DNA from: a virus
Lineage: Duplodnaviria; Caudoviricetes
Direction: 5' to 3' (one strand)
DNA length: 64,000 nt
Virus record (IMG/VR): IMGVR_UViG_3300008107_000020
The notes under the pieces were generated by a model. The model saw only the letters and a program-made list of their open reading frames with translations. It was not told where the DNA came from and searched no databases. The position numbers were made by a program, and so were the translations under genes. Positions 18,487-53,485 of this stretch are shown here, one piece after another; position 1 is the stretch's first letter, and the number at the start of each line of letters is the position of its first letter.

Positions 18487-18510
18487 AAAACACATTTTAC
18501 CATAAAAAGT

Positions 18511-18541
18511 AAAGCCAGGGTAGCGAATCCTGGCTTTTTTT
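18511..18541. terminator. Bidirectional rho-independent terminator
   Basis: AAAGCCAGG-gtagcgaat-CCTGGCTTT followed by a T-run, between convergent genes. Confidence 0.8.
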
Positions 18542-18588
18542 GTTCCATAACTGGAACGGTCCTAAAACACCGCTTATAGCGGAATATC

Positions 18589-24525: not shown

Positions 24526-24546
24526 TCTTAGGGTTACATTAAAAAT

Positions 24547-24577
24547 TAAAAGGGTGGATTTTTTCCACCCTTTTTTT
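24547..24577 (+). terminator. Rho-independent terminator after the MCP gene
   Basis: AAAAGGGTGGA-tttt-TCCACCCTTTT plus T-run. Confidence 0.88.
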
Positions 24578-24630
24578 GTTTATATTTGTTTGTTTTTTTA
24601 CTATATTTGTATGGTTAATTAGAAACATTT

Positions 24631-30546: not shown

Positions 30547-31798
30547 CGAATACAATAATACTGAAATCTTAGCAAAAGATTACAAACAACCAGCAAACTC
30601 ATTTATAGTACATTTTGTAAATGGTGCTTTATGTGAAATTAAAGGACCGATATCAAAAAAATACAAGGTTGTTTTTTCTGATAATAAAACTGGGCACGTT
30701 CATCACGTATCTGAGATTACAAATAACATGTGGACTAAAAGTGCCATTGAATATTTTATCGAATGGAATATTAAAGTATATGAGTTAGAAACGGAAGAGT
30801 TAGTTTTTGAACACACATACGATTGTAAAGATAAAAGGGTTTACATCCATTTAGATAGCTCTGCTGTTGGTGATACAATGGCTTGGTTTCCGTATGCGGA
30901 TGAGTTCAGAAAAAAACACGGGTGTAAAGTTTTGTGCTCAACATTCCATAATGAATGGTTTGAGGGTATGTATCCAGAAATTGAATTTGTTAAACCTGGT
31001 ACACCTGTTATTGATTTATACGCAATGTATAAGATTGGTTGGTTTTACGATAATAAAGAAGTTGTTAAAACCAAAATCCCGATTGATTTTAAACAGCACC
31101 CTTTACAAGAAACTAGTTCATGTATTCTAGGGTTGGATTATGAAGAGGTTAAACCAAAGGTTTTTGTACCAGAAGAGCCTAGTAGAATTGAAGGTAAATA
31201 TGTTATTATTGCACCTCACGCATCTGCACACGCTAAATATTGGAATCATCCAGGCGGATGGCAAGGTGTTATTGATCACTTAAATGCTAGTGGTTATAAG
31301 GTTGTTATGATTACATCAGAAAAACTGGGTGATGCTTGGCATGATTCAAAACTTGGTGGTACATTAAGAAATGTTATTGATAAAACTGGTGGTCATATTG
31401 ATCTGGTTGACAGAATGATTGACATTAAACACGCATCGGCTTTTATTGGTTTAGGTAGTGGTTTAAGTTGGTTATCTTGGGCTATCGGAACACCTACAGT
31501 TCTTATCTCTGGATTTAGTTACCCTTTATCTGAGTTTGCTGACTGTGAAAGGATTTTTAACCCAAATGTTTGTAACGGATGTTTTAATAGACATTGGTTA
31601 AACCCAGGGGATTGGGAATGGTGCCCAGATCACAAAGATACACCAAGACACTTTGAATGTTCTAAAACTATTGAAACTCAAACTGTTATAGACGCTGTTA
31701 ATAGACTTTTAACCAAAAAAGAAGAGCCAGTTCAAGAGGTCATTGAAGAAAATTTAGAAAAAAAAGATAAAAAAAGTTTTTTTGGTAAGTTTTTTTAG
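30527..31798 (+). CDS. Aah/TibC-type autotransporter O-heptosyltransferase homolog (BAHT family; protein Ser O-glycosylation)
   Basis: N-terminal beta-barrel F.NGA..I.G; SSAVGDTMAWFPYADEFRKKH; FIGLGSGLSWLSWAIGTPTVLISGFS; iron-finger C-x2-C-x13-C-x11-C (CNGC...WCP...FEC). Confidence 0.88.
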   Translation: MKDILINEYNNTEILAKDYKQPANSFIVHFVNGALCEIKGPISKKYKVVFSDNKTGHVHHVSEITNNMWTKSAIEYFIEWNIKVYELETEELVFEHTYDCKDKRVYIHLDSSAVGDTMAWFPYADEFRKKHGCKVLCSTFHNEWFEGMYPEIEFVKPGTPVIDLYAMYKIGWFYDNKEVVKTKIPIDFKQHPLQETSSCILGLDYEEVKPKVFVPEEPSRIEGKYVIIAPHASAHAKYWNHPGGWQGVIDHLNASGYKVVMITSEKLGDAWHDSKLGGTLRNVIDKTGGHIDLVDRMIDIKHASAFIGLGSGLSWLSWAIGTPTVLISGFSYPLSEFADCERIFNPNVCNGCFNRHWLNPGDWEWCPDHKDTPRHFECSKTIETQTVIDAVNRLLTKKEEPVQEVIEENLEKKDKKSFFGKFF

Positions 31799-31834
31799 GT
31801 ATATTTGTTGCTATAACATATAATAGCAACAACT

Positions 31835-32410
31835 ATGTTTTATAAATATGACGAAAAACAACTCAAATTTGTTAAGAACAAATTGGGTATAAGGATAGCA
31901 TTAGGAACCACCATTTTATTGATGGTTGGTTCCTTTTTTATTGGTAGGTATACCAGCGGTACACTCACTAAATATGAAAAAGAGTATATTCATATTAATT
32001 GGGAAAAAGAACGTAACGCTATTAATAAAGAAAAACTAGCTAAAGAACTAAAAGAATCTGGTATTAAATTCCCACACATTATAATGGCCCAGGCTATTAT
32101 TGAATCTGGTAATTTTAAGAGCGAACTTTATAAATCAAATAATAATCTATTTGGTATGACAATACCTGGTTCAAGAAATACCACCAATATTGCTGTTGAT
32201 GGTAAATATGCTAAATATAACACATGGCAAAGGTGTGTGCTTGATATGGCTTATCTGCAACAATATAATTTAAAGGGTATTAGATTAGGTAATGATGAGG
32301 ATTACTTTATATATTTGAAAAATAGTAATTACGCTGAAGCTCCGAATTATATAGCCGCTTTAAAAAACGTAATAGATAAAGAAAATTTAAAATCTTATTT
32401 TAATGAGTAA
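31835..32410 (+). CDS. GH73 glucosaminidase-like peptidoglycan hydrolase with N-terminal membrane anchor
   Basis: TM segment IALGTTILLMVGSFFIG; MAQAIIESG, NNLFGM, YAKY, YAEAPNY. Confidence 0.75.
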   Translation: MFYKYDEKQLKFVKNKLGIRIALGTTILLMVGSFFIGRYTSGTLTKYEKEYIHINWEKERNAINKEKLAKELKESGIKFPHIIMAQAIIESGNFKSELYKSNNNLFGMTIPGSRNTTNIAVDGKYAKYNTWQRCVLDMAYLQQYNLKGIRLGNDEDYFIYLKNSNYAEAPNYIAALKNVIDKENLKSYFNE

Positions 32411-33268: not shown

Positions 33269-33541
33269 TTATTTCTTTAAATCTTGGATCTCTTTATCAA
33301 GATCTTTTATCGCCTCGATAAGTAAACCAACCAAGTTTGAGTAAGCTACCGCTAAGTGTCCATCGGATTCCCTTGTCGAGATAACTTCTGGGACAACTTT
33401 TTGAACTTCCTGTGCAATAACACCCATTTTCAAAGATTTATCTTCAATATCATTTCTTGTATAGTTAACACCTCTCATATTTCTTACTTTATTTAAGGCA
33501 TCACTAATTGTAACAACATTGTCCTTAACTCTTTGATCTGA
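33269..33541 (-). other. Peptidase S74 intramolecular chaperone domain (C-terminus of the fibre)
   Basis: Y|SDQRVKDNV...ALNKVRNMRGVNY...MGVIAQEVQKVVPEVI...VAYSNLVGLLIEAIKDL plus terminal coiled coil. Confidence 0.92.
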
Positions 33542-36500
33542 GTATGCAATAACATCAGCAGATGCGTAGATAGTACCAGTAACATCTAATGTATATGCTG
33601 GAGTAGCGTTGTTAATACCTAATCTTGTATTAGCTATATCCGCTTTCAAGAAGCTAACGCTTTGTACTTGTGTTGTACTCACAGTTCTAACTAAGTAGTC
33701 AGGTTGGTTTGTGAATGAACCACCGCTGATACCTGATGTACCGCTAATTGATTGTCCACTTGTTCCAGCAACACCTGATGTACCGTTTGAACCATTAATA
33801 CCTGAAGTACCACCAGCTCCATTTGCACCTGAGTTACCAGCAGCTCCAGCGGTACCATTTGTACCATTTGCACCAGATGTACCATTTGTACCAGATGTAC
33901 CTGAAGAAGCTGACAATCTACCAGTACCAGCCGTACCGCCAGCACCTGAAGTACCAGATGTACCTGAAGTACCAGAAGATCCGTTAGCACCCGAAGTACC
34001 GTTAGCACCAACACCTGATGTACCAGCACCTGATGTACCTGAAGTACCAGCTGTTGCTGAAGTACCAGAAGAACCAGCTGTACGAGAAAGACCCGATACA
34101 CCACCAGTACCAGTTGTACCACCTGTTGCAGAAGAACCTGATAAACCACTAATACCTGAGTTACCGTTGTTACCAGACGTACCGTTTGTACCAGTTGATC
34201 CTGAAGAACCAGAAGTACGAGATAAACCACTAGCCCCAGCGTTACCATTATTACCAACAGTACCGTTTGTACCAGTTGATCCTGAACTACCTGATGTACC
34301 ACTTGCCTGTGTTACGCCAAAACCTGCGCTTAATGCATTAGCACCCACAGTACCATTTGTACCGCTTGATCCTGAAGAACCAGAAGAGCCAGAGTTTGCA
34401 GAAGCACCAATGTTACCAGCATTACCTGAAGTACCATTTGTACCAGTTGATCCAGATGAGCCACTTAATGCTGACGCACCTATGTTACCCGCAGCACCGT
34501 TTGTACCATTAGACCCTGAAGAACCAGATGAACCAGAGGCTCCTGAGTTAGCAACTAAACCTATTGTACCGCTTGTACCTGAAGAACCACTTGATCCTGA
34601 AGCACCTGATATTCTATCATTACCACTTGTACCCTGAGTACCAGTTGATCCAGAAGATCCAGATGAACCAGAGTTTGCCGATAATCCGTTAGCACCAGCA
34701 TTACCTGAGGTACCGTTTGTACCTGTAGATCCAGACGAACCACTCAATGCTGATGCACCAATGTTACCCGCAGCACCATTTGTACCATTTGTTCCCGAAG
34801 AACCAGATGTACCTGAAAGTGTACTTGTACCAGAAGGAACAACCAAACCATTTGTACCAGCCGTACCTGTAGATCCAGATGAACCACTATTACCTGAGTT
34901 ACCGTTAGCGCCATTGTTACCGTTAGTACCGTTTGTACCATTTGAACCCGATAAACCACTATTACCTGAGTTACCGTTAGCGCCATTGTTACCGTTAGTA
35001 CCAGTAGAACCATTTGTACCACTTAAGCCAGAGTTACCGCTGTTACCATTCACACCGATAGTACCATTTGTTCCTGAAGAACCACTTGATCCAGAAGAAC
35101 CAGATAATCTTGATAAACCTGAAACACCATCTGTACCTGAAGTACCAGTTGATCCAGCTGAACCTGAAGAACCTGAGCTTCTGCTTAAACCCGATTGACC
35201 ATCTGTACCTGAGGTACCTGATGTTCCAGCTGTTGCAGAAGAACCAGCTAATCTACTTAAACCTGATGTACCAACCGTACCGTTTGTTCCTGAAGAACCA
35301 CTTGATCCAGACGAACCTGAAGCACCTGAGTTAGCCATTAAACCGACTGTACCGTTTGTACCGTTTGAACCACTTGAACCAGATGCACCACTTACAGCGT
35401 TGTTACCATTGTTACCTGAGGTACCGTTTGTACCTGTAGATCCAGACGAACCACTCAATGCTGATGCACCATTACCACCGTTTATACCGTTTGTACCAGT
35501 TGACCCTGAAGAACCGCTAGAGCCAGAGTTAGCACTCAATCCGTTGTTACCCGCAGCACCATTTGTACCAAACGTACCTGATGATCCTGAAGAACCTGAA
35601 AGTGTACTTGTGCCAGAAGGAACGGCTAAACCATTTGTACCAGCCGTACCTGTAGATCCAGATGAACCAGAAGATGCTGAAGAACCACTTAATTGTGATA
35701 AACCTGAGTTACCAGTTGTACCTGAAGTACCAGTTGAACCACTGGTACCTGAAGAACCAGAGTTTCTTGATAACCCTGACGCACCATCAGTACCCGCAGT
35801 ACCAGTTGTACCAGAAGAACCTGAAGTTGCAGAAGAACCAGCTAATCTACTTAAACCTGATGTACCATTTGTACCATTTGTTCCTGAAGAACCAGATGAC
35901 CCTGAGGAACCAGAAGCACCTGAGTTAGCCATTAAACCAACAGTACCGTTTGTACCATTAGATCCTGAAGAGCCTGAAGCGCCACTTACCGCATTGTTAC
36001 CATTATTACCGTTAGTACCGTTTGTACCTGTAGATCCAGACGAACCTGAGTTTGCAGAGGCACCACTATTACCAGCAGCTCCAGCAGTACCATTTGTACC
36101 AGTTGTTCCTGAAGAACCTGAAGAACCCGACAATTGTGATAAACCACTATTACCAGCAACACCCGCAGTACCAGTTGTACCAGAAGTTCCTGAAGAACCA
36201 CTTATCGCAGAAAAAGTACTTTGACCTGAAGTTGCGTTAAGACCGTTTGTACCAGACGTACCTGATGAACCAGCTGTTGCTGAAGAACCAGACAACCTAC
36301 TTAAACCAGAAACACCATCTGTACCTGAAGTACCTGTTGAACCAGCTGATCCAGAAGAACCTGATGTATCACTTGCAGCGGATATACCATCTGTACCTGA
36401 AGTACCTGATGTACCAGCTGTTGCTGAAGAACCAGACAATCTTGATAAACCTGATGTACCAACTGTACCATTTGTTCCTGAAGAACCAGATGAAGCAGAT

Positions 36501-39500
36501 GAGCCACTTAATGCGCTTAAACCGTTATTACCAGCATTACCTGAAGTACCATTTGTACCAGTTGATCCAGATGAACCACTTAATGCTGACGCACCTATGT
36601 TACCTGCCACACCATTTGTACCATTTGAACCTGAGGTTGCAGATGAACCACTTAATTGTGATAAACCTGAAGCGCCAGCTGTACCTGAAGTACCAGTTGT
36701 ACCTGATGTCGCTGATGAACCGCTATTTAAGCTTAATCCTGAAGCACCCGCAGTACCATTTGTTCCTGAAGAACCTGAAGTTGCTGAAGAACCAGAACTA
36801 CCACTTAAACCACTATTACCTGAATTACCCGCAGTACCATTTGTACCTGTTGATCCTGAAGAACCTGAGGTCCCTGAAGATCTACTCAATGCCGATGCAC
36901 CGTCTGTACCAGCGGTACCAGTTGTTCCAGAAGTACCTGAAGTACCAGCAGAGCCAGATAATCTTGACAATCCTGATGTACCAACTGTACCGTTTGTTCC
37001 TGAAGAACCTGAAGAAGCGCTTGATCCGCTTAATTGAGACAATCCTGAATTACCAGCTGTTCCGTTTGATCCGCTCGTACCTGAAGTTGCGGATGAACCA
37101 GATGAACCTGCGCTACCACTTAATTGTGATAAACCGTTTGTACCCGCAGTACCTGTTGATCCAGAAGATGCTGAAGAACCAGCTGTTGCACTCAATCCTG
37201 AGTTACCAGCCGCACCTGAAGTACCGTTTGAACCTGTACTACCTGAGCTACCAGATGTACCAGAAGATCTACTCAAACCAGATTGGCCATTAGTACCTGA
37301 AGTACCAGTTGAACCAGCTGAACCTGAGCTACCACTTAATTGTGATAGACCATTTGTACCTGCTGTACCTGAAGTAGCTGAAGTACCAGCTGATCCTGAA
37401 GAACCGCTATTTGCACTAGCACCATTTGTACCGTTTGTACCAGTTGATCCACTTGATCCAGATGTTCCACTTGATTTACTTAATGATGATTGACCATCTG
37501 TTCCATTTGTTCCAGAAGAACCACTTGTTCCTGAAGAACCTGAAGATCTACTTAAACCTGATTGAAGTACCAGCTGTTCCGCTTGTTGCAGAAGAAGCCG
37601 AAGTTCCAGAGGATGCTGAAGCACCTGATACACCCGCAGTACCGTCAGTACCTTTAGAACCACTAGAACCAGAAGTTCCTGAAGTTCCTGAAGTTACACT
37701 TAAACCACTATTTGCAGCTAAACCTGAAGTACCAACCGTACCTGAAGTTGCTGAAGACCCTGAAGTTCCAGCTGAGCCACTATTATTACTTGAACCAATT
37801 GTACCAGCAGTACCAGTTGAACCTGAAGAACCTGAAGTTCCAGAACTTCTACTTAATGCTGAAGCACCATCTGTACCATTTGTTCCTGAAGACCCAGACG
37901 TTCCTGAAGATCCTGAAGATCTACTTAAACCTGAAGTACCATTTGTACCACTTGAACCAGAAGAAGCAGAAGATCCACTTAATTGTGACAACCCTGAAGC
38001 ACCTGCTGTACCGCTTGAACCAGAAGTACCTGAAGTTGCTGAAGAACCACTAGAACCAGACAATCTTGATAAACCTGATGTACCAACTGTTCCTGAGGTG
38101 GCTGAAGAACCAGCAGACCCTGAAGAACCACTGTTTGCTGATTGACCACTCGTACCGTTTGTACCAGTTGATCCTGAAGAACCAGAAGTTGCTGAAGAAC
38201 CCGAGTTGGCACTCAATCCTGAAGTAGCCGCTGAACCTGAACTACCTGAAGTTCCTGAAGTCGCAGATGTACCCGCAGAACCACTTGAACCTGATAATTG
38301 AGATAAACCATTTGTACCAGCTGTACCTGTAGTACCAGAAGATGCACTTGTACCTGATGAACCCGCATTTGCAGATGCACCATTTGTACCATTTGTACCT
38401 GTAGACCCACTAGAACCTGAAGTTCCAGCTGAGCCACTATTATTTGAAGAACCTGAGGTTCCAGCTGTACCTGAAGTTGCTGAAGAACCACTAGAACCTG
38501 ATGAACCCGCATTTGCAGAAGCACCATTTGTACCATTTGTTCCAGTTGTACCACTTGTTGCCGAAGAACCTGAGGTTGAACTTAAACCACTATTACCAGC
38601 ATTACCTGAAGTACCATTTGTACCCGTAGACCCAGACGAACCTGAAGTTCCTGAAGAACCTGAGCTTCTACTTAAACCTGATTGACCATCTGTACCTGAA
38701 GTACCAGTTGAACCAGCTGATCCCGATGTACCTGAAGTATCACTTGTAGCAGACACACCATCCGTACCTGAAGTACCAGACGTTCCAGCTGTTGCTGAAG
38801 AACCAGACAGTCTTGATAAACCGTTTGTACCAGCGGTACCAGTTGTTCCAGAAGAACCACTTGATGCGCTTGATCCACTTAATTGTGATAAACCAGAAAG
38901 ACCCGCAGTACCATTTGTACCAGTAGATCCTGAAGATGCTGAAGTACCGCTTGAACCACTATTTGCCGATTGACCACTTGTACCAGCGCTACCTGAAGAT
39001 GCTGATGATCCTGAAGAACCAGATGTTCCAGAAGTTGCACTTGATCCAGCACTACCTGAAGATCCGCTTAATTGAGACAATCCTGAGGTTCCAACCGTTC
39101 CAGAAGTTGCTGAAGAACCTGATGTAGCGGAGCTACCACTATTCGCACTCGCACCATTAGTACCATTTGTACCCGTAGAACCTGAAGAACCTGATGTTCC
39201 ACTTGATCTACTTAATGATGATTGACCATCTGTTCCAGAAGTTCCTGTAGAACCTGAAGAACCACTTGTTCCAGAAGTATCACTTGTAGCAGACACACCA
39301 TCTGTACCTGAAGTACCTGATGTACCAGCTGTTGCTGAAGAACCACTTAATCTACCCAATCCTGAAGTACCAGCGGTACCACTTGTAGCAGATGAACCAG
39401 AAGTTGCTGAAGAACCACTATTTGCACTCGCACCCGAAGTTCCATTAGAACCAGTTGAACCTGATGTTCCAGAAGTTGCTGAAGAACCAGCAGAACCACT

Positions 39501-42500
39501 TAAACCTGAGGATCCAGCTGTTCCTGAAGTTGCACTAGACCCTGAAGAACCTGAACTACCAGATGAACTACTTAAAGCTGAAGAACCAACTGTACCAGTA
39601 GTACCTGATGTACCACTTGATGCGGATGTTCCTGAAGAACCACTATTTGCAGCTAAACCTGAAGTACCATTTGTACCAGTTGATCCGCTTGATCCTGAAG
39701 AACCTGATGTTCCCGAAGATTTACTTAATGCAGAAGCACCGTCTGTACCAGCTGAACCACTTGATCCTGAAGAACCAGAAGTTCCTGAAGTTGCTGATGT
39801 TCCCGCTGAACCTGAGCTACCGCTTAACTGAGATAATCCAGATGTACCGACCGTACCTGAGGTCGCTGAAGAACCACTTGTAGCTGAACTACCTGAGTTA
39901 GCTGAAGCACCATTTGTACCGTTTGAACCAGTCGATCCAGATGAACCTGATGTTCCAGAACTTCTGCTTAAACCAGACTGGCCATCCGTACCTGAAGTAC
40001 CAGTTGAACCACTTGATCCAGATGTACCTGAAGTATCACTTAAAGCAGATTGACCATCCGTACCTGAAGTACCTGATGTACCAGCCGTTGCTGAAGAACC
40101 TGATAATCTACTTAAACCTGAGGTTCCAACCGTACCTGAAGTAGCTGAAGAACCTGAAGTAGCTGAGCTACCACTATTCGCTGATTGGCCACTTGTACCA
40201 GCAGAACCAGAAGACCCACTTGTACCAGATGTTGCTGAAGAGCCAGCTGAACCCGCACTACCACTTAATTGTGATAAACCACTTGTACCAGCTGTACCTG
40301 AAGTTGCTGAACTACCAGAAGTAGCTGAAGAACCTGAGTTTGCTGATGCACCGTTTGTACCGTTTGTACCAGTTGAACCTGAAGAACCTGAAGTTCCAGA
40401 ACTTCTACTTAATGCTGAAGCACCATCTGTACCAGAAGAACCTGAACTACCAGAAGAACCTGAAGTTCCACTTGTAGCCGAAGTACCCGCACTACCTGAA
40501 GATCCAGATAATTGAGATAAACCGTTTGTACCAGCGGTTCCTGAAGTAGCGGAGCTACCTGATGTTGCTGAAGAACCACTATTTGCGCTTAAACCAGATG
40601 TACCGTTTGTTCCTGTACTACCTGAAGATGCTGATGTACCAGCCGATCCTGAAGACGCTGATAAACCAGATGACCCTGAAGTTCCTGAGGTTGCAGAAGA
40701 ACCTGCACTACCAGCTGAACCGCTTAACGCTGAACTACCTGATGTTCCAGAAGTTGCTGAAGAACCCGAACTACCAGCAGAACCCGAAAGTTGACTTAAA
40801 CCTGATGTACCAGCTGTTCCTGATGTAGCTGAAGTCCCAGCAGAACCTGAGCTACCACTATTTGCACTTGCACCATTTGTACCGTTTGTACCTGTAGACC
40901 CACTAGAACCTGATGTACCCGAAGATCTACTCAAAGCAGACGCACCGTCCGTACCATTTGTTCCAGAAGAACCTGATGTACCCGATGAACCTGAAGATCT
41001 ACTTAAACCCGATGTACCGTTTGTTCCTGAAGAACCGCTTGATGCACTCGATCCGCTTAATTGTGATAAACCTGAGTTACCAGCGGTACCTGAAGTACCA
41101 GTTGTACCTGAGCTAGCTGAAGAACCAGCAGACCCTGAAGAACCGCTTAATTGTGACAAACCTGATGTACCTGCGGTACCGCTTGTTGCGGAACTACCAG
41201 AAGTTGCTGAAGAACCTGAATTTGCGGATGCACCATTTGTACCGTTTGTACCTGTAGACCCACTAGAACCTGATGTACCCGAAGATCTACTCAATGCCGA
41301 TGCCCCATCAGTACCTGCTGATCCTGAACTACCTGAACTACCTGAAGTTCCAGAAGTTGCTGAAGTTCCAGCCGATCCTGAAGAACCTGATAATTGAGAT
41401 AAACCATTTGTACCAGCTGTACCTGAAGTTGCAGAAGAACCACTTGATCCTGAAGATCCAGAGTTTGCAGAAGCACCAACAGTACCGCTTGTACCACTTG
41501 ATCCTGAAGAACCTGAAGTTCCAGCAGAACCACTATTATTTGAAGAACCTGAAGTTCCAGTTGTACCAGTTGTACCTGAAGAAGCGCTTGTACCAGATGA
41601 ACCAGAGTTAGCTGAAGCACCATTTGTACCGCTTGTACCAGTTGTACCGCTTGTTGCAGAAGAACCTGAAGTTGCGCTTAAACCACTATTACCTGCATTA
41701 CCTGAAGTACCGTTTGTACCAGTTGATCCGCTTGATCCTGAAGAACCAGAAGTTCCTGAAGATTTACTTAATGCAGAAGCACCGTCTGTACCAGCTGAAC
41801 CTGAAGATCCACTTGATCCAGATGTACCTGAAGTAGCTGAAGTTCCAGCAGAACCCGATGAACCACTCAATTGAGACAAACCAGAAGTACCAGCTGTGCC
41901 TGAGGTTGCGGATGAACCAGAAGTTGCTGAAGACCCTGAATTTGCGGATGCACCATTTGTACCAGCTGATCCTGAAGATCCACTTGAACCTGATGTACCA
42001 CTTGATTTACTTAATGCCGATTGACCATCTGTACCTGATGTACCAGTTGAACCGCTTGAACCAGACGTTCCTGAAGTATCTGATGTAGCTGATTGTCCAT
42101 CCGTACCTGAAGTACCAGACGTTCCAGCTGTTGCTGAAGAACCAGACAATCTTGATAAACCTGATGTACCAACTGTTCCTGAAGTTGCAGATGAACCTGA
42201 AGTTGCTGAAGAACCACTATTTGCTGATTGACCACTTGTACCAGCAGAACCTGAAGATCCTGAAGATCCTGATGTACCACTAGTTGCTGAAGAACCAGCG
42301 GATCCAGCACTACCGCTTAATTGTGATAAACCACTTGTACCAGCTGTACCTGAAGTAGCGGAAGAACCTGATGTTGCTGAACTACCAGAGTTTGCAGAAG
42401 CACCATTTGTACCCGCAGTTCCAGTTGATCCTGATGAACCAGAGGTACCACTTGATTTACTTAAAGCGGATGCTCCATCAGTACCAGCCGATCCTGAAGA

Positions 42501-45500
42501 CCCGCTTGATCCAGAAGTTCCTGAAGTTGCTGATGTACCAGCGGATCCACTTGACCCACTCAATTGTGACAACCCTGATGTACCAGCGGTTCCTGAGGTA
42601 GCTGAACTACCTGAAGTTGCGGATGAACCACTATTTGCGGCTAAACCTGAAGTACCATTAGAACCTGTAGAACCAGAAGATGCTGATGTACCAGAAGATG
42701 CTGATAATGCACTTAAACCTGAAGAACCTGCGGTTCCTGACGTTGCTGAAGAACCTGAACTACCAGCAGAACTGCTTAACGCTGAACTACCAGAGGTACC
42801 TGTTGTACCACTTGTTGCGGAACTACCGCTTGTCGCAGAAGAACCGCTATTTGCAGCTAAACCTGAAGTACCATTTGTACCAGTAGAACCTGAAGATCCA
42901 CTTGAACCAGATGTACCTGAAGATTTACTTAATGCTGACGCACCATCAGTACCCGCACTACCTGAAGAACCAGAAGAACCTGATGTTCCTGAAGTCGCAG
43001 ATGTACCCGCTGAACCAGAAGAACCACTTAATTGAGACAATCCTGATGTACCAACTGTACCTGAAGTTGCGGATGAACCAGAAGAAGCTGAAGTTCCTGA
43101 AGAAGCTGAAGCCCCACTAGAACCAGCTGAACCAGTTGACCCACTTGTTCCTGAGGTTGCGGATGAACCCGCAGAACCTGAAGAACCACTATTAGCTGAA
43201 GAACCAACTGTACCAGTAGTACCTGATGTACCACTTGATGCGCTTGTTCCTGATGAACCTGAATTTGAACTTAATCCTGAAGTACCATTTGTACCTGAAG
43301 TTGCTGAAGATCCGCTTGACGCTGATGTCCCTGAAGACGCTGATGCTCCCGAAGAACCGTTAGAACCTGTAGAACCAGAGGTACCACTTGTTGCTGAACT
43401 ACCAGAAGACGCTGATAAACCAGATGAACCTGCGGTTCCTGAAGTTGCTGAAGATCCTGATGAAGCTGAACTACCAGAATTAGCTGATAAACCTGAGGTA
43501 CCATTTGTACCTGAAGTTGCTGAAGAACCAGCTGTACCACTTGTTGCTGAAGACGCTGAAGCTCCTGATGAACCACTTGTTCCTGTAGAACCAGCTGTAC
43601 CGCTTGTTGCTGAACTACCAGAAGATGCTGACAACCCACTTGAACCAGCTGAGCCAGAAGTTGCGGATGATCCTGATGTAGCAGAGCTACCACTATTTGC
43701 ACTCAACCCTGATGTACCATTTGTTCCACTTGTAGCTGAACTACCAGAAGAAGCGGATGTACCTGAAGAAGCTGAAGCACCTGAAGCACCAGCTGTACCG
43801 CTTGAACCAGAGGTACCTGAAGTTGCAGAAGAACCACTTGAAGCACTTAAACCTGAAGAACCAGCTGTACCTGAAGTAGCGGAGCTACCTGAAGTCGCTG
43901 AGGATCCGCTTAATGCGCTTAAACCACTTGTACCATTTGTTCCTGAAGTTGCGGATGAACCAGAAGATGCTGATGTACCTGAAGAAGCTGAAGCTCCTGA
44001 TGACCCTACTGAACCTGAAGAACCTGATGTTCCTGACGTAGCAGAACTACCAGAACTTGCACTCAATCCTGAAGAACCTGCGGTTCCTGAAGTTGCTGAG
44101 GATCCTGATGTGGCAGAGCTACCACTATTTGAAGATAGACCTGACGTACCAGCTGTTCCTGAAGTAGCGGAGCTACCTGAAGAACCTGATGAACCAGAAC
44201 TATTACTATTTCCACTCGAACCTGCGGTTCCTGAAGAAGCTGAACTTCCTGAAGAACCCGATGTACCACTAGTTGCAGATGACCCACTTGTAGCGGATGA
44301 TCCAGAATTAGCAGCTAAACCTGAAGTACCATTTGTACCTGAAGTTGCTGAAGATCCGCTTGACGCTGATGTCCCTGAAGATGCGCTTAAACCTGAAGAA
44401 CCAGCTGATCCAGCTGAACCTGATGTTCCTGACGTAGCAGAACTACCAGAAGATGCGCTTAAACCTGAACTACCTGATGTACCGCTTGTAGCAGAGCTAC
44501 CTGAGGTTGCAGAAGAACCTGAATTAGAACTCAACCCTGATGTACCATTTGTTCCTGAAGTTGCGGATGAACCAGAAGATGCTGATGTACCTGAAGAAGC
44601 TGAAGCTCCTGATGAACCAGCGGAACCACTTGTTCCCGAAGTACCAGAAGATGCTGAACTACCAGAAGATGCACTTAAACCTGAAGAACCAGCTGTACCT
44701 GAAGTTGCAGAAGAACCAGAGGAAGCTGATGACCCACTATTTGAGGCTAAACCTGAAGTACCATTTGTTCCACTTGTAGCTGAACTACCAGAAGAAGCTG
44801 ATGTACCAGAAGAAGCTGAAGCCCCTGAAGAACCTGATGTACCAGATGATCCTGAAGTAGCGGAAGTTCCTGAAGAACCCGCTGAACCAGAGCTACCACT
44901 ATTTGCGGCTAAACCAGAAGTACCATTTGTACCTGAAGTTGCGGAAGAACCAGAAGAAGCTGAAGTTCCTGAAGAAGCTGATGCTCCCGAAGAACCGTTA
45001 GAACCTGTAGAACCAGATGTTCCACTTGTTGCTGAAGATCCAGAAGAAGAACTTAAACCTGAAGAACCAACTGTTCCTGAGGTTGCGGATGAACCTGATG
45101 TTCCTGAAGAACCAGAGTTACTAGATAAACCGCCAGTACCATTTGTACCCGTAGAACCGCTTGAACCAGATGTTGCTGAAATAGCAGAAATACCATCAGC
45201 ACCATCAACACCGCTTGAACCAGATGTACCTGAAGAACCCGAAGAACCTGATGTTTTACTTGAACCAGCTAAACCGCTTGTACCTGTCGTACCTGAAGTC
45301 GCAGATGTACCTGAAGTTGCAGAAGAACCACTATTTGAAGATAATCCTGAAGTACCGTTTGTTCCTGAAGTTGCTGAAGATCCGCTTGATGCAGATGTTC
45401 CTGATGTTGAAGAAACACCGCTTGATCCAGCTGTACCAGAAGTTGCTGAAGAACCTGAGGTTGCTGAACTACCAGAAGATGCAGATAAACCCGAAGATCC

Positions 45501-48500
45501 TGATGTACCACTTGTAGCAGAACTACCTGAGGTTGCAGAAGAACCACTATTTGAAGATAAACCCGAAGTACCGTTTGTTCCTGAAGTTGCAGAAGAACCA
45601 GATGATGCAGACGTACCTGAAGTTGCTGAAGCACCTGAAGAACCAGCGCTACCTGTTGATCCTGATGTTCCTGATGTAGCACTTGATCCAGCTGAACCAG
45701 AAGACGCACTTAAACCAGAAGTACCAACTGTACCAGAAGTTGCTGAAGAACCTGAAGAAGCTGAAGCGCCAGAATTACCACCAGTTCCTGAAGTTCCTGA
45801 AGAACCACTTGAACCAGATGAGAATGATAATCTACTTTGACCAGCAACACCAGTTGTACCATTTGTACCAGAAGAACCAGAAGAACCTGAAGTTTCACTT
45901 AAACCACTGTTTGAACTAGCACCATTTGTACCGCTAGAACCTGAGGTTGCAGAAGAACCTGAGGTTGCGCTTGAACCACTATTTGCGGCTAAACCAGAAG
46001 TACCGATTGTACCTGAAGTTGCAGACGAACCTGAAGATGCTGCTGAACCTGATGACCCACTTTCACCACTTGAACCATTAGAACCTGATGTTCCTGAAGA
46101 ACCAGCTGTTCCTGAAGAGGCTGAGTCGCCAGAACTTCCTGATGTTCCAGTAGAGCCTGAAGCACCACTTGAACCAGATGTTCCAGTAGAACCGTTATCA
46201 CCAGAAGAACCGTTTGTTCCTGAAGAACCAGAAGCGCCTGATTCACCATTTAAACCATTTATACCTGAAGAACCTGAAGATCCAGTTGACCCTGAAGACC
46301 CACTTTCACCACTTTCACCTGAAGTACCAAAACTACCACCATCACCAGATGTACCATCGCTACCTGTAGAACCAGATTCACCCGATTGACCAGATGTCCC
46401 AAATGAGCCATCATTACCCGAAGATCCATCGCTACCTGTAGAACCAGATTCACCACTTATTCCTGAAGTTCCTGAAGAACCGTTATCACCGCTTGTACCA
46501 TCCGATCCTGTACTACCACTTTCACCGCTTATTCCTGATGTACCGTTAGAACCTTCGTTTCCTGATGTACCATCTGATCCAGTTGAACCTGATTCACCAC
46601 TTATTCCTGAAGTTCCTGAAGAACCGTTATCACCGCTTGTACCATTTGAACCAGTTGACCCAGAGTCGCCACTTACACCCGATGTACCATTAGAACCATC
46701 ATTACCTGATGTACCATCTGAACCAGTTGAACCGCTTTCACCTGATAAACCACTTGTACCGTTAGATCCGTTATTACCTGATGTGCCATCACTACCCGTG
46801 CTACCACTTTCACCTGATACACCAGAAGTTCCACTTGAACCATTATCACCAGAAGAACCATCTGAACCAGTTGATCCCGATTCTCCACTTATACCAGAGG
46901 TTCCGTTGGAGCCATCATCACCTGAAGAACCGTTAGTTCCTGAAGAACCTGAAGCTCCGCTTTCACCATTTAAACCATTTATACCTGAAGAACCTGAAGA
47001 TCCAGTTGATCCCGAAGACCCACTTTCGCCAGATTGGCCAGATGTTCCAAATGAACCATCATTACCTGAAGAACCATCTGATCCAGAGGATCCAGACTCA
47101 CCTGATATACCAGATGTTCCAAATGAACCATCATTACCTGAAGATCCATCGCTACCTGTGGAACCAGATTCACCCGATTGACCAGATGTACCGTAAGACC
47201 CATCAGCCCCACTTGATCCATCTGACCCAGTTGATCCAGACTCACCACTTATTCCCGAAGTCCCTGAAGATCCGTCATTACCTGATGTGCCATCACTACC
47301 AGTTGAACCTGATTCTCCACTTATTCCTGAAGTTCCATTTGAACCATTATCACCGCTACTACCATCACTACCAGTTGATCCAGACTCACCACTTATTCCT
47401 GAAGTCCCATTAGATCCGTCATTACCTGAAGATCCGTCTGAACCAGTTGAACCACTTTCACCTGATTGACCTGAAGTTCCGTTGGAACCATCGTTACCTG
47501 AAGACCCATCTGAACCAGTAGACCCAGATTCACCACTTATACCAGAGGTTCCAAAACTACCGTTAGCTCCTGAAGAACCGTCTGAACCAGTTGAACCTGA
47601 TTCACCACTTATACCAGAGGTTCCGTTAGAACCGTTATCACCAGAAGAACCGTTAGTTCCTGAAGAACCTGAAGCTCCGCTTTCACCATTTAAACCATTT
47701 ATACCTGAAGAACCTGAAGATCCAGTTGATCCTGAGGATCCCGATTCACCACTTTCACCTGAAGTACCAAAACTACCGTCAGCTCCTGAAGAACCATCAC
47801 TACCCGTGCTACCACTTTCACCTGATTGACCAGATGTTCCTGAAGAACCGTCATTACCTGAAGATCCGTCTGAACCTGTGCTACCACTTTCACCGCTTAT
47901 CCCTGATGTTCCAAATGAACCATCCGCTCCTGAAGAACCATCTGACCCAGTTGATCCAGACTCACCACTTATTCCTGAAGTACCATTAGATCCGTCATTA
48001 CCAGATGTACCATCTGATCCAGTAGACCCAGATTCACCTGATTGGCCAGAGGTTCCAAATGAACCGTCAGCCCCACTTGATCCATCGGATCCTGAAGACC
48101 CAGATTCACCTGATTGGCCAGAGGTTCCAAATGAACCGTCAGCCCCACTTGATCCATCGGATCCTGTAGAACCAGATTCACCTGATTGGCCAGAAGTACC
48201 AAAAGATCCATCATTACCTGAAGAACCTGAAGATCCAGTTGATCCCGATTCTCCACTTATTCCTGAAGTTCCATTAGATCCGTCATTACCTGAAGATCCG
48301 TCTGAACCTGTGCTACCACTTTCACCACTTATTCCTGAAGTCCCATTTGAGCCATTATCGCCTGATGTACCATCTGAACCAGTTGATCCTGACTCGCCAG
48401 ATTGGCCAGAAGTACCAAAAGATCCATCATTACCTGAAGACCCATCTGATCCAGTAGACCCAGATTCACCCGATTGACCAGAGGTTCCAAATGAACCATC

Positions 48501-50597
48501 ATTACCTGAAGACCCATCTGAACCTGTGCTACCGCTTTCACCCGATTGACCAGAAGTACCATTTGATCCGTCATTACCTGAAGAACCATTGGATCCGTTT
48601 GATCCCGATTCACCACTTATTCCTGAAGTTCCATCAACACCATCAACACCATCAACACCATTTGTACCAGAAGTACCACTTTCACCTGATGTACCAGATT
48701 CACCCGATGAACCACTTTCACCAGATTGGCCAGATGTACCGTTAGAACCATCCGCTCCTGAAGAACCATCTGAACCAGTAGACCCAGATTCACCACTTAT
48801 ACCAGAGGTTCCTGAAGAACCGTCATTACCACTACTACCATCACTACCAGTTGAACCAGATTCCCCTGAAGTCCCGTTAACGCCTGTTGTACCAGAATCA
48901 CCGTCCGAACCGTTAGTTCCTGAAGAACCTGAAGCTCCGCTTTCACCATTTAAACCATTTATACCTGAAGAACCTGAAGACCCAGTTGATCCTGAAGACC
49001 CACTTTCGCCAGATTCACCTGAAGTTCCATTTGAACCATTATCACCACTACTACCATCACTACCTGTACTACCACTTTCTCCACTTACCCCTGAAGTTCC
49101 TGAAGAACCATCATTACCTGATGATCCATCTGATCCTGTACTACCGCTTTCACCACTTATACCTGAAGTTCCGTTGGAACCATCGTTACCGCTTTCACCT
49201 GATGTACCATTACTGCCTGATTCACCAGAAATACCTGAAGTACCAAAACTACCATCATTACCACTTGACCCATCTGATCCTGTTGATCCCGATTCACCAC
49301 TTATACCAGAGGTTCCGTTAGAACCACTTTCTCCACTTATTCCTGAAGTTCCTGAAGAACCATCATTACCACTAGATCCGTCAGACCCTGTTGAACCTGA
49401 TTCACCAGAAATACCTGAAGTACCAAAACTACCGTCAGCTCCTGAAGAACCATCTGATCCTGTTGACCCAGATTCACCAGAAATACCAGAAGTTCCATTG
49501 GAACCATCGGCACCACTTTCACCTGAAGTACCAGTTGACCCTGATTCACCTGAAACACCTGAAGTACCATTAGAACCATCGTTACCGCTTATCCCACTTG
49601 TGCCATCAACACCATCAACACCATCAATACCATTTGTACCAGAAGTACCAGATTGACCACTCGTACCATCATTTCCTGTGCTACCAGATTCACCTGATAT
49701 ACCTGATGTTCCATTTGAACCATCCGCTCCTGAAGAACCATCTGAACCAGTACTACCAGATTCACCACTTACTCCTGAAGTCCCTGAAGATCCGTCATTA
49801 CCTGATGTGCCATCACTACCAGTTGAACCTGATTCACCACTTATACCAGAGGTTCCGTTGGAACCATCTGCTCCTGAAGAACCGTCAGAGCCAGTTGAAC
49901 CACTTTCTCCACTTATTCCTGAAGTTCCTGAAGAACCATCATTACCACTTTCACCTGATGTGCCATTACTACCACTTTCTCCACTTAAACCTGAGGTTCC
50001 GTTACTACCATCATTACCCGATGTACCATCTGATCCTGTTGACCCAGATTCGCCAGACATCCCCGAAGTTCCGTTGGAGCCATCGGCACCGCTTTCACCT
50101 GAAGTACCAGTGCTACCTGATTCACCACTTATCCCTGAAGTTCCTGAAGAACCATCATTACCACTACTACCATCACTACCATTACTACCTGATTCTCCAG
50201 AAACACCAGATGTACCATCAGAACCACTCAAACCCGAATAACCTGAAGTACCAGCTGTACCAGAAGTACCTGTTAATAAAGGTGAATATGAATATTCACC
50301 AGTAGCTGCATTAAACGACACAAAATAGTTCGGTGAACTATTTTCGGTCATTCCTGTAACAAATAACTCATTTAAAATATAAACACCCTTAAGATCTTGG
50401 GTGTTTTCCCACTGTCCAGTGGTATCGTTCCAAACTAAAATGTCCCCTTCATTGGGGCCACTAATTACAACGTCAGATAGATCATCTATTCCAAGATTTT
50501 CTATAACGTCTTTTATATTTTGGAAGTTAGCATCTAATTCCGCATAGGATAGTGCCCTTCCTAGATCGTCTCTAAGATAAATTGTTACTGTTGCCAT
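33269..50597 (-). CDS. Giant Ser/Thr-rich Gly-X-X repeat virion fibre, about 5,780 aa if repaired; present here as 37548..50597 plus a +1-frame continuation to 33269
   Basis: Fibre-type N-terminus (LR...G.AL.Y.ELD.NF; DDLSDVVI...GDILVWN...W.N), over 5,400 aa of triplet repeats, C-terminal S74 chaperone. Repeat register is continuous across the break at 37563-65. Confidence 0.85.
33700..50270 (-). repeat. Degenerate 9-nt (triplet-residue) tandem repeat array with higher-order 72-nt and 720-nt units
   Basis: G-X-X periodicity. The GINGLNGES marker recurs at + positions 46251, 46971, 47691 (exact 720-nt spacing) and 48951. Confidence 0.95.
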
Positions 50598-50664
50598 TTA
50601 TATATGTTAGTTTAAACTACTAACATATAAATAGTATCAAATACTAATAAGGCAACAGTAACAA
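50582..50664 (-). promoter_or_regulatory. Structured leader of the fibre gene with an embedded late-promoter-like TATTTATA
   Basis: Perfect inverted repeats: 14 bp (50582-95/50651-64), 11 bp (50601-11/50619-29), 6 bp (50632-37/50641-46). TATTTATA on the - strand at 50626-33. Confidence 0.7.
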
Positions 50665-50684
50665 CGTTTTTTTTTACTATTTTT

Positions 50685-53150
50685 TTATTCTGTGATGTTA
50701 ACGTTTATTTTTTCACTCTTAATATTATAAGTTAAACTTATTTTACCAGATTTAGGCATTTGTTTACGTAACATTTCGTCTGAAATCGGGTCCTCTACAT
50801 ATTTCTGTATGGTTCTTTGGATTTCCCTAGCCCCGTATAGTTTATTAAAACCTTTTTCCAAAATAAATTCTTTAGATTTTTTATCAATTTTAAATGTAAA
50901 CCCAACATTTTTTAAGTGATTTTCAAAATCCTTTAATTGTAAATCAATAATTTTAACAACATCATCTTGTGTTAGATAATTAAAATAAACAATTTCATCC
51001 AAACGATTAATAAATTCTGGTTTAAAAGTTTTCTTAAGGTTTTTTTCAATAATACTTTTTGAGTTTACAATCGCATCCGCTTCAGAATCATTAAAACCGA
51101 TTTTAGTACCAAAATCTTGAACCTCTTTCAAACCGATATTTGATGTCATGATGATAATGGTATTTTTGAAATTAATTTTTCTACCGTTAGCATCGGTTAA
51201 ATAACCCTCATCAAGTAATTGAAGCATAACATTGAAAATATCTGGGTGAGCCTTTTCAATCTCATCAAATAAAACCAAAGAATATGGTTTATTTTTAACT
51301 TTCTCCGTTAATTGACCACCTTCGTTATACCCAACATAACCTGGGGGTGCCCCAATTAACTTACTAATATTAAATTTTTCGGAGTATTCGGACATATCGA
51401 CACGGATAATAGCATCTTGAGAACCAAAAACTTTTTCAGCTAAACATTTTGCTAATTCTGTTTTACCAACACCAGTTGGTCCAATAAATAAGAATGAACC
51501 GATTGGTTTAGATTGTTTTCTAATACCAGTTCTATTTCTTTTGATTGATGAAACAACTTTATCGATTGCATCTGATTGACCAATAACACAATTAGCCAAT
51601 TCACCATCCATTGATAATAATCTTGTTACCTCATTCTCAGAGACTTTACTAACAGGTATACCCGTCATCATTGATACTACTTCGGAGATCATATCATCCG
51701 TCACAATATTTCTTTTATCATTAATCGATAACTTCCACATTGAATTTTCTTTATCTAACTCGGTAAGAATTTTTTTCTCTTGATCACGAAGCTGCGCTGC
51801 CTGCTCAAAATTTTGGGTTTTAACAACTTGTTGTTTTTGATCCTTAATCTCTTTTAACTTAAGTTCAAGATCCTTTATTTTTTGTGGTGCCTTAACCGCC
51901 ACCTGAGTTCTTGAACCAGCCTCATCCATGATATCGATAGCCTTATCAGGGAATTCCCTGTTTGTGATATAACGATCAGCCAATGCGATAATTTCATCAA
52001 TAGCCTCTTCAGTGTATGTTACTTTATGGAAATCTTCGTATTTCTCTTTAATATTCATAAGGATTTCTTTAGTCTCACTTAAGATTGGTGGGTTAACCAT
52101 AACTTTTTGGAATCTTCTATCTAAAGCACCATCCTTTTCAATATGCTCACGATATTCATCAAGAGTTGTTGCACCAATACATTGGAGTTCTCCACGGGCT
52201 AATGCGGGTTTAAATACGTTTGCAGCGTCTAACGAACCCGATGAATTACCAGCACCAACAATTGTATGTAATTCATCAATGAAAAGAATCACATTTGGGT
52301 TATCTTTAGCCTCATCAACAATAGCTTTAATTCTCTCCTCAAACTGACCACGATATTTTGTACCAGCAACCAACGATGTCATATCTAATGTTACAACACG
52401 TTTGTTCATTAGAGGCCTTGGGCAATCACCGTTCGCAATTTTAATTGCTAAACTTTCAGCGATAGCTGTCTTACCAACACCTGGATCACCAATAAGAATC
52501 GGGTTATTTTTCTTTCTTCTTGTTAAAATTTGACAAACCCTCTCAACCTCAGATGCACGACCTATTACAGGATCTAATTTACCTTCTTGTGCTAAAACAG
52601 TTAAATCACGACCAAAATTATCTAATGTCGGTGTTTTTGATTTAATATTTTTATTTGCCTCGTTTAATGGTTTCCTATCTCTAGGTAACTCATCATCATT
52701 AGAGAATACGCTGGCTTGTGGTGTTGATAATTGTTTAATTTTCTTAGCGATAAAAGTTTTTGTTAAACCATATTCCTTAAAAAGTTTAACAATCGCATTA
52801 TCTTTTTCCATTGAGATTAGAAAGAAAAGCTCAACAGTGATGTAGTCGGTTGGCTTTTTCCTTACGATACACTCTTTAATTATTTCTTGAAGATCTGACT
52901 CAAAAGGTAAGATACCATCTTGTTTACCATTAGATGAATCGGAAAGCCTCTTATTAATGTCATTTAAGTCATTAACCATCACATCAAAATCCAATACTTT
53001 GTTTTTGACAACCTCATAAATCATATTCTCAGTAGTAAGGATACCGAATATAACATGTTGTAACCTAAGCATCGAGTCATCATACTTAATTGCCACGGAT
53101 TGCCCCCTAGTAAAGGCGCTTCTTAACTCATTTGTCATTCTTTCTTTCAT
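50685..53150 (-). CDS. clpC: ClpC-type Hsp100 ATPase
   Basis: Clp N-domain; NBD1 [15 protein letters not shown]; UVR coiled coil ([15 protein letters not shown]); NBD2 [17 protein letters not shown]; IGF loop; [11 protein letters not shown]. Confidence 0.93.
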
Positions 53151-53170
53151 GTGCGAATATATATTTTATG

Positions 53171-53218
53171 CAAAGATAGTAATAATCTTGACATAACCAA
53201 ACTTTTTTCCTACTTTTG
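53171..53218. promoter_or_regulatory. Divergent Bacteroidota-type promoters
   Basis: - strand: TTTG (53198-201)-N19-TATCTTTG (53171-78) before clpC. + strand: TACTTTTG (53211-18) before the ORF at 53234. Confidence 0.65.
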
Positions 53219-53233
53219 TTAAAAATAAATATT

Positions 53234-53485
53234 ATGGGGAAAACAACAATCTATTTTAAGGACGGTAATTTTATCGAATACTCCGATCAGGATGTAAACA
53301 ATGTTGTATCTATGATAAGTGGTAACCATTTAATTGTAACAACAAAGTCAACAGAAGAAACTGATAATGGGCCAGTTATCATTAATAATACAATTGTATA
53401 TGAGTTGGATAAGATAAAAAACTTTGTAAAAATAACACCAACAATAAAATTTAACATCGAAGAAGATCATGTCAGTAACAAGTAA
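53234..53485 (+). CDS. Hypothetical protein (ATG at 53234 preferred to TTG at 53216)
   Basis: The TTG at 53216 lies inside the -7 promoter motif; the ATG has an A-rich leader. Confidence 0.55.
   Translation: MGKTTIYFKDGNFIEYSDQDVNNVVSMISGNHLIVTTKSTEETDNGPVIINNTIVYELDKIKNFVKITPTIKFNIEEDHVSNK

Follow-up and report, generated by a model that had tools for sequence, protein, structure and literature searches.

A folded RNA leader as a candidate promoter-dependent insulator between clpC and a giant fibre gene in an uncultured phage

The virus record IMGVR_UViG_3300008107_000020 (Caudoviricetes), of which a stretch of 64,000 nucleotides (nt) was analysed (hereafter the window), carries a giant fibre gene placed directly behind clpC, a gene for a ClpB-type unfoldase, and both genes lie on the minus strand. 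The original prediction, made from the letters of the window, held that the leader between the two genes hides the fibre start codon unless a late promoter embedded in it is used. That interpretation is supported by the present analysis, as those of its parts that can be tested in silico came out as predicted. With a probability of roughly 60%, the spacer acts as a cis-acting insulator at the RNA level, in which the fibre start would be hidden on clpC read-through RNA and open on RNA initiated at a promoter-like box, TATTTATA.

The leader fold and access to the fibre start

The spacer comprises 87 nt (50598-50684), one less than the 88 nt given in the original prediction, and the fibre has a computed mass of 368 kDa instead of the roughly 500 kDa proposed there. 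The two genes and the elements of the leader are the following; lengths are in base pairs (bp), nt or amino acids (aa).

50685-53150, minus strand: clpC, a ClpB-type AAA+ unfoldase gene (821 aa; Pfam AAA_2 at 1e-66, AAA_lid_9, ClpB_D2-small and UVR), whose transcripts would enter the leader
50666-50684, minus strand: A-rich tract right after the clpC stop, A-rich in the close clade and variable in sequence (column identity 0.77)
50651-50665, minus strand: 5' arm of the outer stem (anti-start), non-coding, pairing with the fibre start region
50632-50646, minus strand: 6-bp hairpin with a 3-nt loop (stem 50632-37 / 50641-46), the 3' arm of which shares 2 nt with the box
50626-50633, minus strand: the box TATTTATA, a candidate phage (late-type) promoter with an orientation bias, found before TerL, the S77 protease and the gene after portal
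50601-50629, minus strand: 11-bp inner hairpin (stem 50601-11 / 50619-29), the 5' arm of which shares the last 4 nt of the box
50595-50597, minus strand: fibre start codon, an ATG from which all relatives share the conserved N-terminus MATVTIYLR..LGR..ELD.NF
50581-50595, minus strand: 3' arm of the outer stem, comprising codons 2-5 flanked by the G of the AUG and by two bases of codon 6
50572-50580, minus strand: U-rich tail after the outer stem (codons 6-8; UUUAUCUU), a possible terminator tail
37548-50597, minus strand: giant Ser/Gly/Thr-rich, collagen-like fibre gene (4349 aa, 368 kDa) with collagen repeats

Read on the gene strand, the clpC stop is followed by the A-rich tract, the 15-nt segment 50665-50651, the 6-bp hairpin, TATTTATA, the 11-bp hairpin, UAAAU, and finally the 15 nt from the G of the AUG onwards. 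RNAfold folded this leader into a three-way junction of -34.6 kcal/mol (z-score -7.12), and none of 200 dinucleotide shuffles was as stable. The same junction was obtained with longer flanks (z -6.65), and it was also stable with 150 nt of upstream context. It is exactly the multi-branch structure that had been described, with its 11-bp and 6-bp stems and with the box at 50626-33 within the fold. The 14-nt complement to the G of the AUG and the next 13 nt was likewise confirmed as a perfect inverted repeat (50582-50595 / 50651-50664), which a G.U pair (50581/50665) extends to 15 bp. Six of these 15 pairs are G-C, and the two arms span an interior of 55 nt. The inner hairpin can be extended further by pairing of CUAUUUAU, a part of the box, with AUAAAUGG.

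The outer stem is exceptional within the window: with up to 2 mismatches allowed, the 14-mer was found only as the two arms, and just one other perfect 14-nt inverted pair within 150 nt occurs in the 64 kilobases (kb), an all-A/T palindrome. The comparison of the leader with Rfam gave only a chance match below threshold, to SNORD70 (28.8 bits, the gathering score being 50).

The accessibility of start codons was compared by means of the opening energy, defined as the free-energy cost of making the region from -12 to +13 relative to the start codon single-stranded; the long RNA was given 150 nt of upstream context. On the long RNA the fibre start required 21.4 kcal/mol, the highest value among the 45 genes of the window (the next was 14.2 and the median about 4.8), as against 2.9-2.2 kcal/mol on RNAs beginning 5, 6, 7 or 8 nt after the box. 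The value thus barely depends on the exact start chosen within this range. In the centroid structure of the short RNA the first 43 nt, which comprise the leader, the AUG and the first codons, are unpaired (z -0.10). The comparison of long and short leaders, named in the original prediction as its first check, therefore agreed with it, and so did the geometry: the box follows the 5' arm of the outer stem and shares bases with that of the inner hairpin, so a transcript starting just past it lacks the 5' arms of both long stems. T4 gene 49, a validated case used as a positive control, gave 15.4 against 5.4-6.6 kcal/mol with the same script.

The box as a candidate promoter

The statistics of the box were taken from the window and from related loci. 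In the window, TATTTATA occurs 11 times on both strands together; seven copies stand in sense orientation at most 40 nt upstream of the start of an open reading frame (ORF), four of these at 16-17 nt, while the reverse complement was found nowhere within 40 nt upstream of an ORF start. The same bias of sense over reverse copies was seen in closely related loci (30 against 4 in 116 kb) and in distantly related phage loci that bear clpC (104 against 20 in 563 kb). The distances from box to ATG cluster at 3-6 and 13-18 nt in the relatives. The box is usually placed 15-17 nt before the ATG, and the copy of the large terminase stands 15 nt before a TTG start. Apart from the large terminase, the box also stands before other genes, among them the gene after portal and that of the prohead protease, where it reads TATTTATG. 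On these statistics TATTTATA behaves as a promoter box, although we found no description of it as a phage promoter in the literature. We infer that it is a late promoter, the word "late" being drawn from the genes that stand next to it.

The late promoter of T4, TATAAATA, is read by gp55 together with gp33 and the gp45 clamp (PMC3014915). The box studied here matches it at 6 of 8 positions in the same orientation, and like it is an 8-bp A/T box without an evident -35 element that stands before virion genes; unlike it, positions 4-5 are TT, as against AA in T4. The T4 box itself was not found in sense orientation within 40 nt of any start in the window. In T4 late promoters the box occupies positions -13 to -6. 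This geometry and the distance clusters in the relatives place the predicted start of transcription as follows.

50618-50622, minus strand: predicted transcription start zone, 5-8 nt after the box

A hairpin promoter of the N4 type, in which the 6-bp stem with its 3-nt loop beside the box would be the recognised structure, was also considered; it was rejected, as the other box sites have no such hairpin and the stem has been lost in several relatives.

RNA reaching the leader from upstream would originate before clpC, where a second promoter was recognised.

53171-53201, minus strand: putative host-type (Bacteroidota sigma-A-like) clpC promoter, consisting of TTTG, 19 nt and TATCTTTG, and ending 20 nt 5' of the ATG

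This sequence was kept in 12 of the 12 relatives shown, and the composite of TTTG, about 19 nt and TAnnTTTG also precedes the helicase gene 59466 and gene 12642. The promoter consensus of Bacteroides and Flavobacterium consists of TTTG at -33 and TAnnTTTG at -7, and we take the arrangement upstream of clpC and the helicase to be this Bacteroidota sigma-A pattern. The host phylum is presumed to be Bacteroidota. Shine-Dalgarno sequences are absent at the start codons of the window.

Conservation of the leader among relatives

The order of clpC followed by the fibre gene was kept in IMG/VR and metagenome contigs whose ClpC is 68-96% identical, and ACTATTTATA was invariant in every fibre leader found. 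Within the close clade (alignment A1), an outer stem of 12-17 bp is present in 12 of the 13 distinct leaders, the exception being L003. The leaders that have it fold at -31 to -37 kcal/mol with z about -7, and the stem is retained even where the fibre N-terminus is just 60-71% identical. The 5' arm is 93-94% conserved, as compared with 77-83% for the adjoining spacer. On the coding side, among 11 distinct leaders synonymous variation is absent from codons 2-8, while most of the conserved-residue codons between 9 and 34 vary; the codons of the U-rich tail are invariant. The 6-bp hairpin is weakly conserved (79.5% of cells paired) and has been lost in L081, L085 and L091. The predicted difference in accessibility is shared by these relatives, with 19.6-25 kcal/mol on long and 1.2-5.2 kcal/mol on short RNA (L118, with a shortened 5' arm, has 17.1 on the long RNA), and by the other relatives with 7-15.5 against 1.8-2.9 kcal/mol.

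Covariation among relatives, which would be expected if the fold is maintained, was found at two places. The inner hairpin carries several compensatory and G.U changes, and in L091, L092 and L113 a compensatory change from C-G to U-A in the outer stem turns codon 4 from GTA to ATA. As the MAFFT alignment misplaces indels of the inner hairpin, pair counts understate covariation, and folds of the individual sequences were used instead.

The locus of the exceptional leader (L003:6461-6575) has a replaced fibre N-terminus (MADITIYSRNE...), and its collagen-like repeats begin about 30 residues earlier; it represents a natural "stem-less" variant.

In farther clades the outer 5' arm is missing, and the start is still buried by other helices. 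In L093, L097 and L101 a single hairpin pairs CUAUUUAU of the box with AUAAAUGG (z about -3). L015, L121 and L122 have a hairpin of about 20 bp with the box at its tip, which ends 3 nt 5' of the AUG (z -5.4 for L015), and in L119 and L123 a shorter, 14-bp hairpin with the box at its tip ends 2 nt 5' of the AUG, to which L119 adds an outer CCAUUUA/UAAAUGG stem. For these farther clades the opening energies were 8.6-15.5 kcal/mol on long and 2.0-2.9 kcal/mol on short RNA. The three related clades thus have different helices, each of which embeds the box and closes on or beside the AUG.

These data bear on the view that the spacer has no function and is an AT-rich sequence that folds by chance and is conserved by the youth of the clade. 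The close clade is indeed shallow, the pairing of the box with AUAAAUGG is of low complexity, and L003 does without the outer stem. We nevertheless judge this view to be very improbable: z reaches -7 in three lineages, the arms persist next to a protein whose identity has fallen to 60%, codons 2-8 are free of synonymous change, and independent helices of the same topology have been formed in the farther clades.

The helices could also belong to an element of RNA processing or stability, either an RNase III-type site that splits the clpC and fibre messages or a 3' structure that protects the clpC mRNA, in which case the box would be no switch. A 15-bp helix between two genes, specific to sense RNA and standing where no compact terminator is found, would suit such an element. 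It would, however, leave unexplained that three clades with different helices all use the fibre start region as the 3' arm and that the invariant box is always inside the helix, and for these reasons the explanation appears quite unlikely.

The strand on which the structure is stable was examined by folding the segment from the box to the AUG alone. It formed a hairpin in 14 of 15 distinct leaders, and in L015 eight basal box-AUG pairs are retained in the isolated segment. In all 15 leaders this hairpin is more stable as sense than as antisense RNA (-13.6 against -2.8 kcal/mol in L091, -9.2 against -3.2 kcal/mol in L093) because several of its pairs are G.U, which favours an RNA structure on the gene strand over a DNA element or a plus-strand RNA. 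The candidate of a terminator for plus-strand transcription, consisting of the stem and a T9 run on the plus strand, was rejected: no plus-strand gene heads there, the distance from stem to T-run varies in the relatives, and the G.U pairs favour minus-strand RNA.

An element at the DNA level, with the inverted 14-mers serving as regulator half-sites that flank the promoter or forming a cruciform, would fit a perfect inverted repeat that brackets a promoter-like box, and over the whole leader of the window the sense and antisense folds are nearly equal (-34.6 and -33.9 kcal/mol). The changes in relatives speak against it, as they keep pairs possible in sense RNA only through G.U (CC to UU in the arm of L003, and the hairpins of L087, L091 and L093). 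The compensatory C-G to U-A change suits pairing better than protein half-sites, and in the farther clades the repeat is replaced by unrelated helices. We regard a DNA element as extremely improbable.

The U-rich tail calls for a separate consideration. The original prediction stated that no terminator is visible after clpC, and this stands insofar as there is no compact GC hairpin followed by a U-run; it does not extend to the outer stem, which carries the U-rich tail UUUAUCUU and a preceding A-run, like the terminators of the phage itself. The outer stem and tail could therefore form a split intrinsic terminator that ends clpC transcripts just inside the fibre gene and is passed by box transcripts, which lack the 5' arm. 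The chief effect would then be transcriptional, and the pairing of the start codon would be a by-product or a second layer. In its layout the element, an A-run followed by the 15-bp stem (6 G-C pairs) and by a tail in which 6 of 8 bases are U, matches the clear terminators of the window (24540-24582 and 18504-18544), and the tail codons are frozen and richer in U in the stem-bearing clade than in the far clades without the outer stem, which use the less U-rich synonymous codons ATA/ATC and TAC at this site. On the other hand, the branched interior of 55 nt compares with loops of 3-8 nt in ordinary terminators, a scan for consensus terminators does not call the element, and the tail is far weaker than the T7-T9 runs of the real terminators of this phage. 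A compact terminator upstream of the box would also serve better; the geometry that straddles the box therefore points to the pairing of the start region as the selected feature. The farther clades, moreover, retain start-burying helices without a U-tail. We consider a terminator as the chief function unlikely, but occlusion and termination could coexist.

Proposed mechanism and its relation to T4

Under the insulator reading, clpC transcripts from the host-type promoter would run on into the fibre gene. As that promoter is conserved and no compact terminator follows clpC, such read-through is probable, though the outer stem with its U-rich tail might stop it. On such read-through RNA the segment 50651-50665 would pair with the 15 nt that begin at the G of the fibre AUG; the two inner hairpins would draw the outer arms together, and the box sequence could also pair with AUAAAUGG. 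In Flavobacterium the level of translation is set by mRNA structure, without Shine-Dalgarno pairing (PMC6847099). The buried fibre start should stay untranslated because the presumed Bacteroidota hosts use no such pairing and need an open start region. The box inside the fold would start RNA about 5-8 nt downstream, lacking the 5' arms of both long helices; starting at 50618-50621, this RNA would have a leader of about 21-24 nt free of structure and should be translated.

Several observations weigh against this mechanism. The outer stem of L003, whose ClpC is 94% identical, has decayed to 4 G.U pairs and 4 mismatches, and its leader (z -1.15) is about as stable as its shuffles, so the long stem is dispensable there. 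The covariation of the outer stem amounts to the single event described above, in a shallow clade. The basal pairing of the box with AUAAAUGG is invariant and could therefore be a by-product of two independently conserved words. A search with phrog_234 and phrog_12791 found no gp55-type sigma factor in five related records, including the complete 298-kb record G001; the control genomes were equally silent, so absence is not implied. Finally, the clpC ATG is preceded at a distance of about 75-80 nt by a TATTTAT word. Should this word be active, late transcription may extend to clpC as well, and a division into early and late would be too simple, though the insulation would still hold.

In three river metatranscriptome runs, contigs were found that match the fibre 5' coding region (50227-50562) and several other genes exactly at low depth. 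The exact matches indicate that the phage is present in the RNA libraries, carry-over DNA being possible. The contigs are short, none crosses 50564-51027, and contigs cannot show RNA ends.

The window encodes, among other proteins, a portal, a gp23-family major capsid protein (26-32% identity to T4-like capsids), a large terminase of T4 type and an S77 (gp21-like) prohead protease, and the G+C content of the phage is 31%. Judged from its capsid protein, terminase and protease, the phage is a distant relative of T4, which makes the analogy with T4 apt. In T4 e (lysozyme), soc, 49 and I-TevI, and also in segB and in mobE of Aeh1, an inhibitory helix forms on early or middle read-through RNA, and the late promoter lies in the DNA of the 5' strand (PMC3014915, PMC2988022). 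The original prediction had drawn the parallel to e, soc and 49, and it holds at the level of prediction, as two of the defining features were found in silico: a stable helix over the AUG on the long RNA, and a promoter-like box in or beside the DNA of the 5' strand.

As in T4 e, soc, 49 and I-TevI, the start is predicted to be buried only on RNA from upstream promoters, the box stands in or next to the 5' strand, and the RNA initiated at it is predicted to be unable to fold. As in the T4 cases, too, a presumably late structural gene would be part of a longer transcription unit in a T4-related phage, and the same calculation predicts an effect of similar size to that of gene 49. In contrast to these cases, no Shine-Dalgarno sequence is available for hiding, and the predicted pairing involves the AUG with the first codons; in addition, a three-way junction with a 15-bp long-range stem over 55 nt takes the place of a simple hairpin. 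Moreover, the box reads TATTTATA where T4 has TATAAATA, a fibre of 368 kDa is the target, and the phylum of the presumed host is Bacteroidota.

T4-like phages also contain PeSLs, composite cassettes of a terminator and an early promoter (PMC2839356, PMC4122927). The leader resembles them in being a short intergenic module with a stem-loop and a promoter in a genome of T4 type. Unlike the leader, PeSLs are dispersed repeats with an early promoter beside the stem-loop. The 14-mer of the leader has no copy in the window beyond its two arms, even when 2 mismatches are tolerated, and the late-type box is inside the stem. A PeSL cassette was excluded on this basis.

The leader would thus represent a mechanism of T4 type in a new group of phages. 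If this is true, the silencing-and-release device of T4 reaches far beyond the T-even phages and works in uncultured giant freshwater phages, where the AUG itself is hidden and the presumed hosts initiate without Shine-Dalgarno pairing. The TATTTATA box would gain a concrete and testable use, and a natural module for promoter-dependent translation would be available for Flavobacterium genetics. No new field is opened, since the logic is textbook knowledge for T4. A more far-reaching version, which we put forward tentatively and hold to be doubtful, is that the late box itself is the anti-start (through CUAUUUAU/AUAAAUGG), that at least three clades have rebuilt helices around it, and that the stem and U-tail of the clade of the window act as an occluder and a bypassed terminator, i.e., as a two-level insulator. 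We know of no described example that combines a translational occluder with a promoter-bypassed terminator in this way.

According to their labels, the DNA runs matching the stretch come from lake, river, freshwater and "fungus" metagenomes, and megablast of 14 kb found no close deposited or cultured phage. The order of clpC and fibre (37548-53150, compared with loci L001-L019) persists even where ClpC identity is down to 68-72%, and this synteny hints at a functional link, for example an unfoldase that handles the giant Ser/Gly-rich fibre. The fibre frame is broken at its 3' end, where a 1464-aa ORF in another frame (33269-37663, minus strand) overlaps the 4349-aa ORF (37548-50597) by 116 nt; a frameshift, an assembly error in the repeats or two separate genes could account for this.

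Upstream of clpC, the region 53151-53240 contains divergent host-type promoters between clpC (minus strand) and a small plus-strand ORF that begins near 53237; both promoters were kept in all relatives, and the TATTTAT word in clpC orientation overlaps the start of this ORF. Two further start regions of the window combine host-type promoter sequences with hairpins. Before gene 12642, in the segment 12582-12641 (plus strand), the host-type promoter (TTTG ... TATATTTG) is followed by a terminator-like hairpin, a perfect stem of 8 bp containing GC, and by a T8 run that extends to the ATG. At 14.2 kcal/mol, the opening energy of this start is exceeded in the window only by that of the fibre. Such an element could act as a 5' attenuator, or it could represent a promoter that overlaps the terminator of the operon upstream. 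The longest inverted repeat of the window (36 nt, 72%; 31779-31858, plus strand) surrounds the start of gene 31835, which is preceded by the host-type box TATATTTG and then by an 8-bp hairpin immediately 5' of the ATG; its opening energy, 10.5 kcal/mol, is the third highest.

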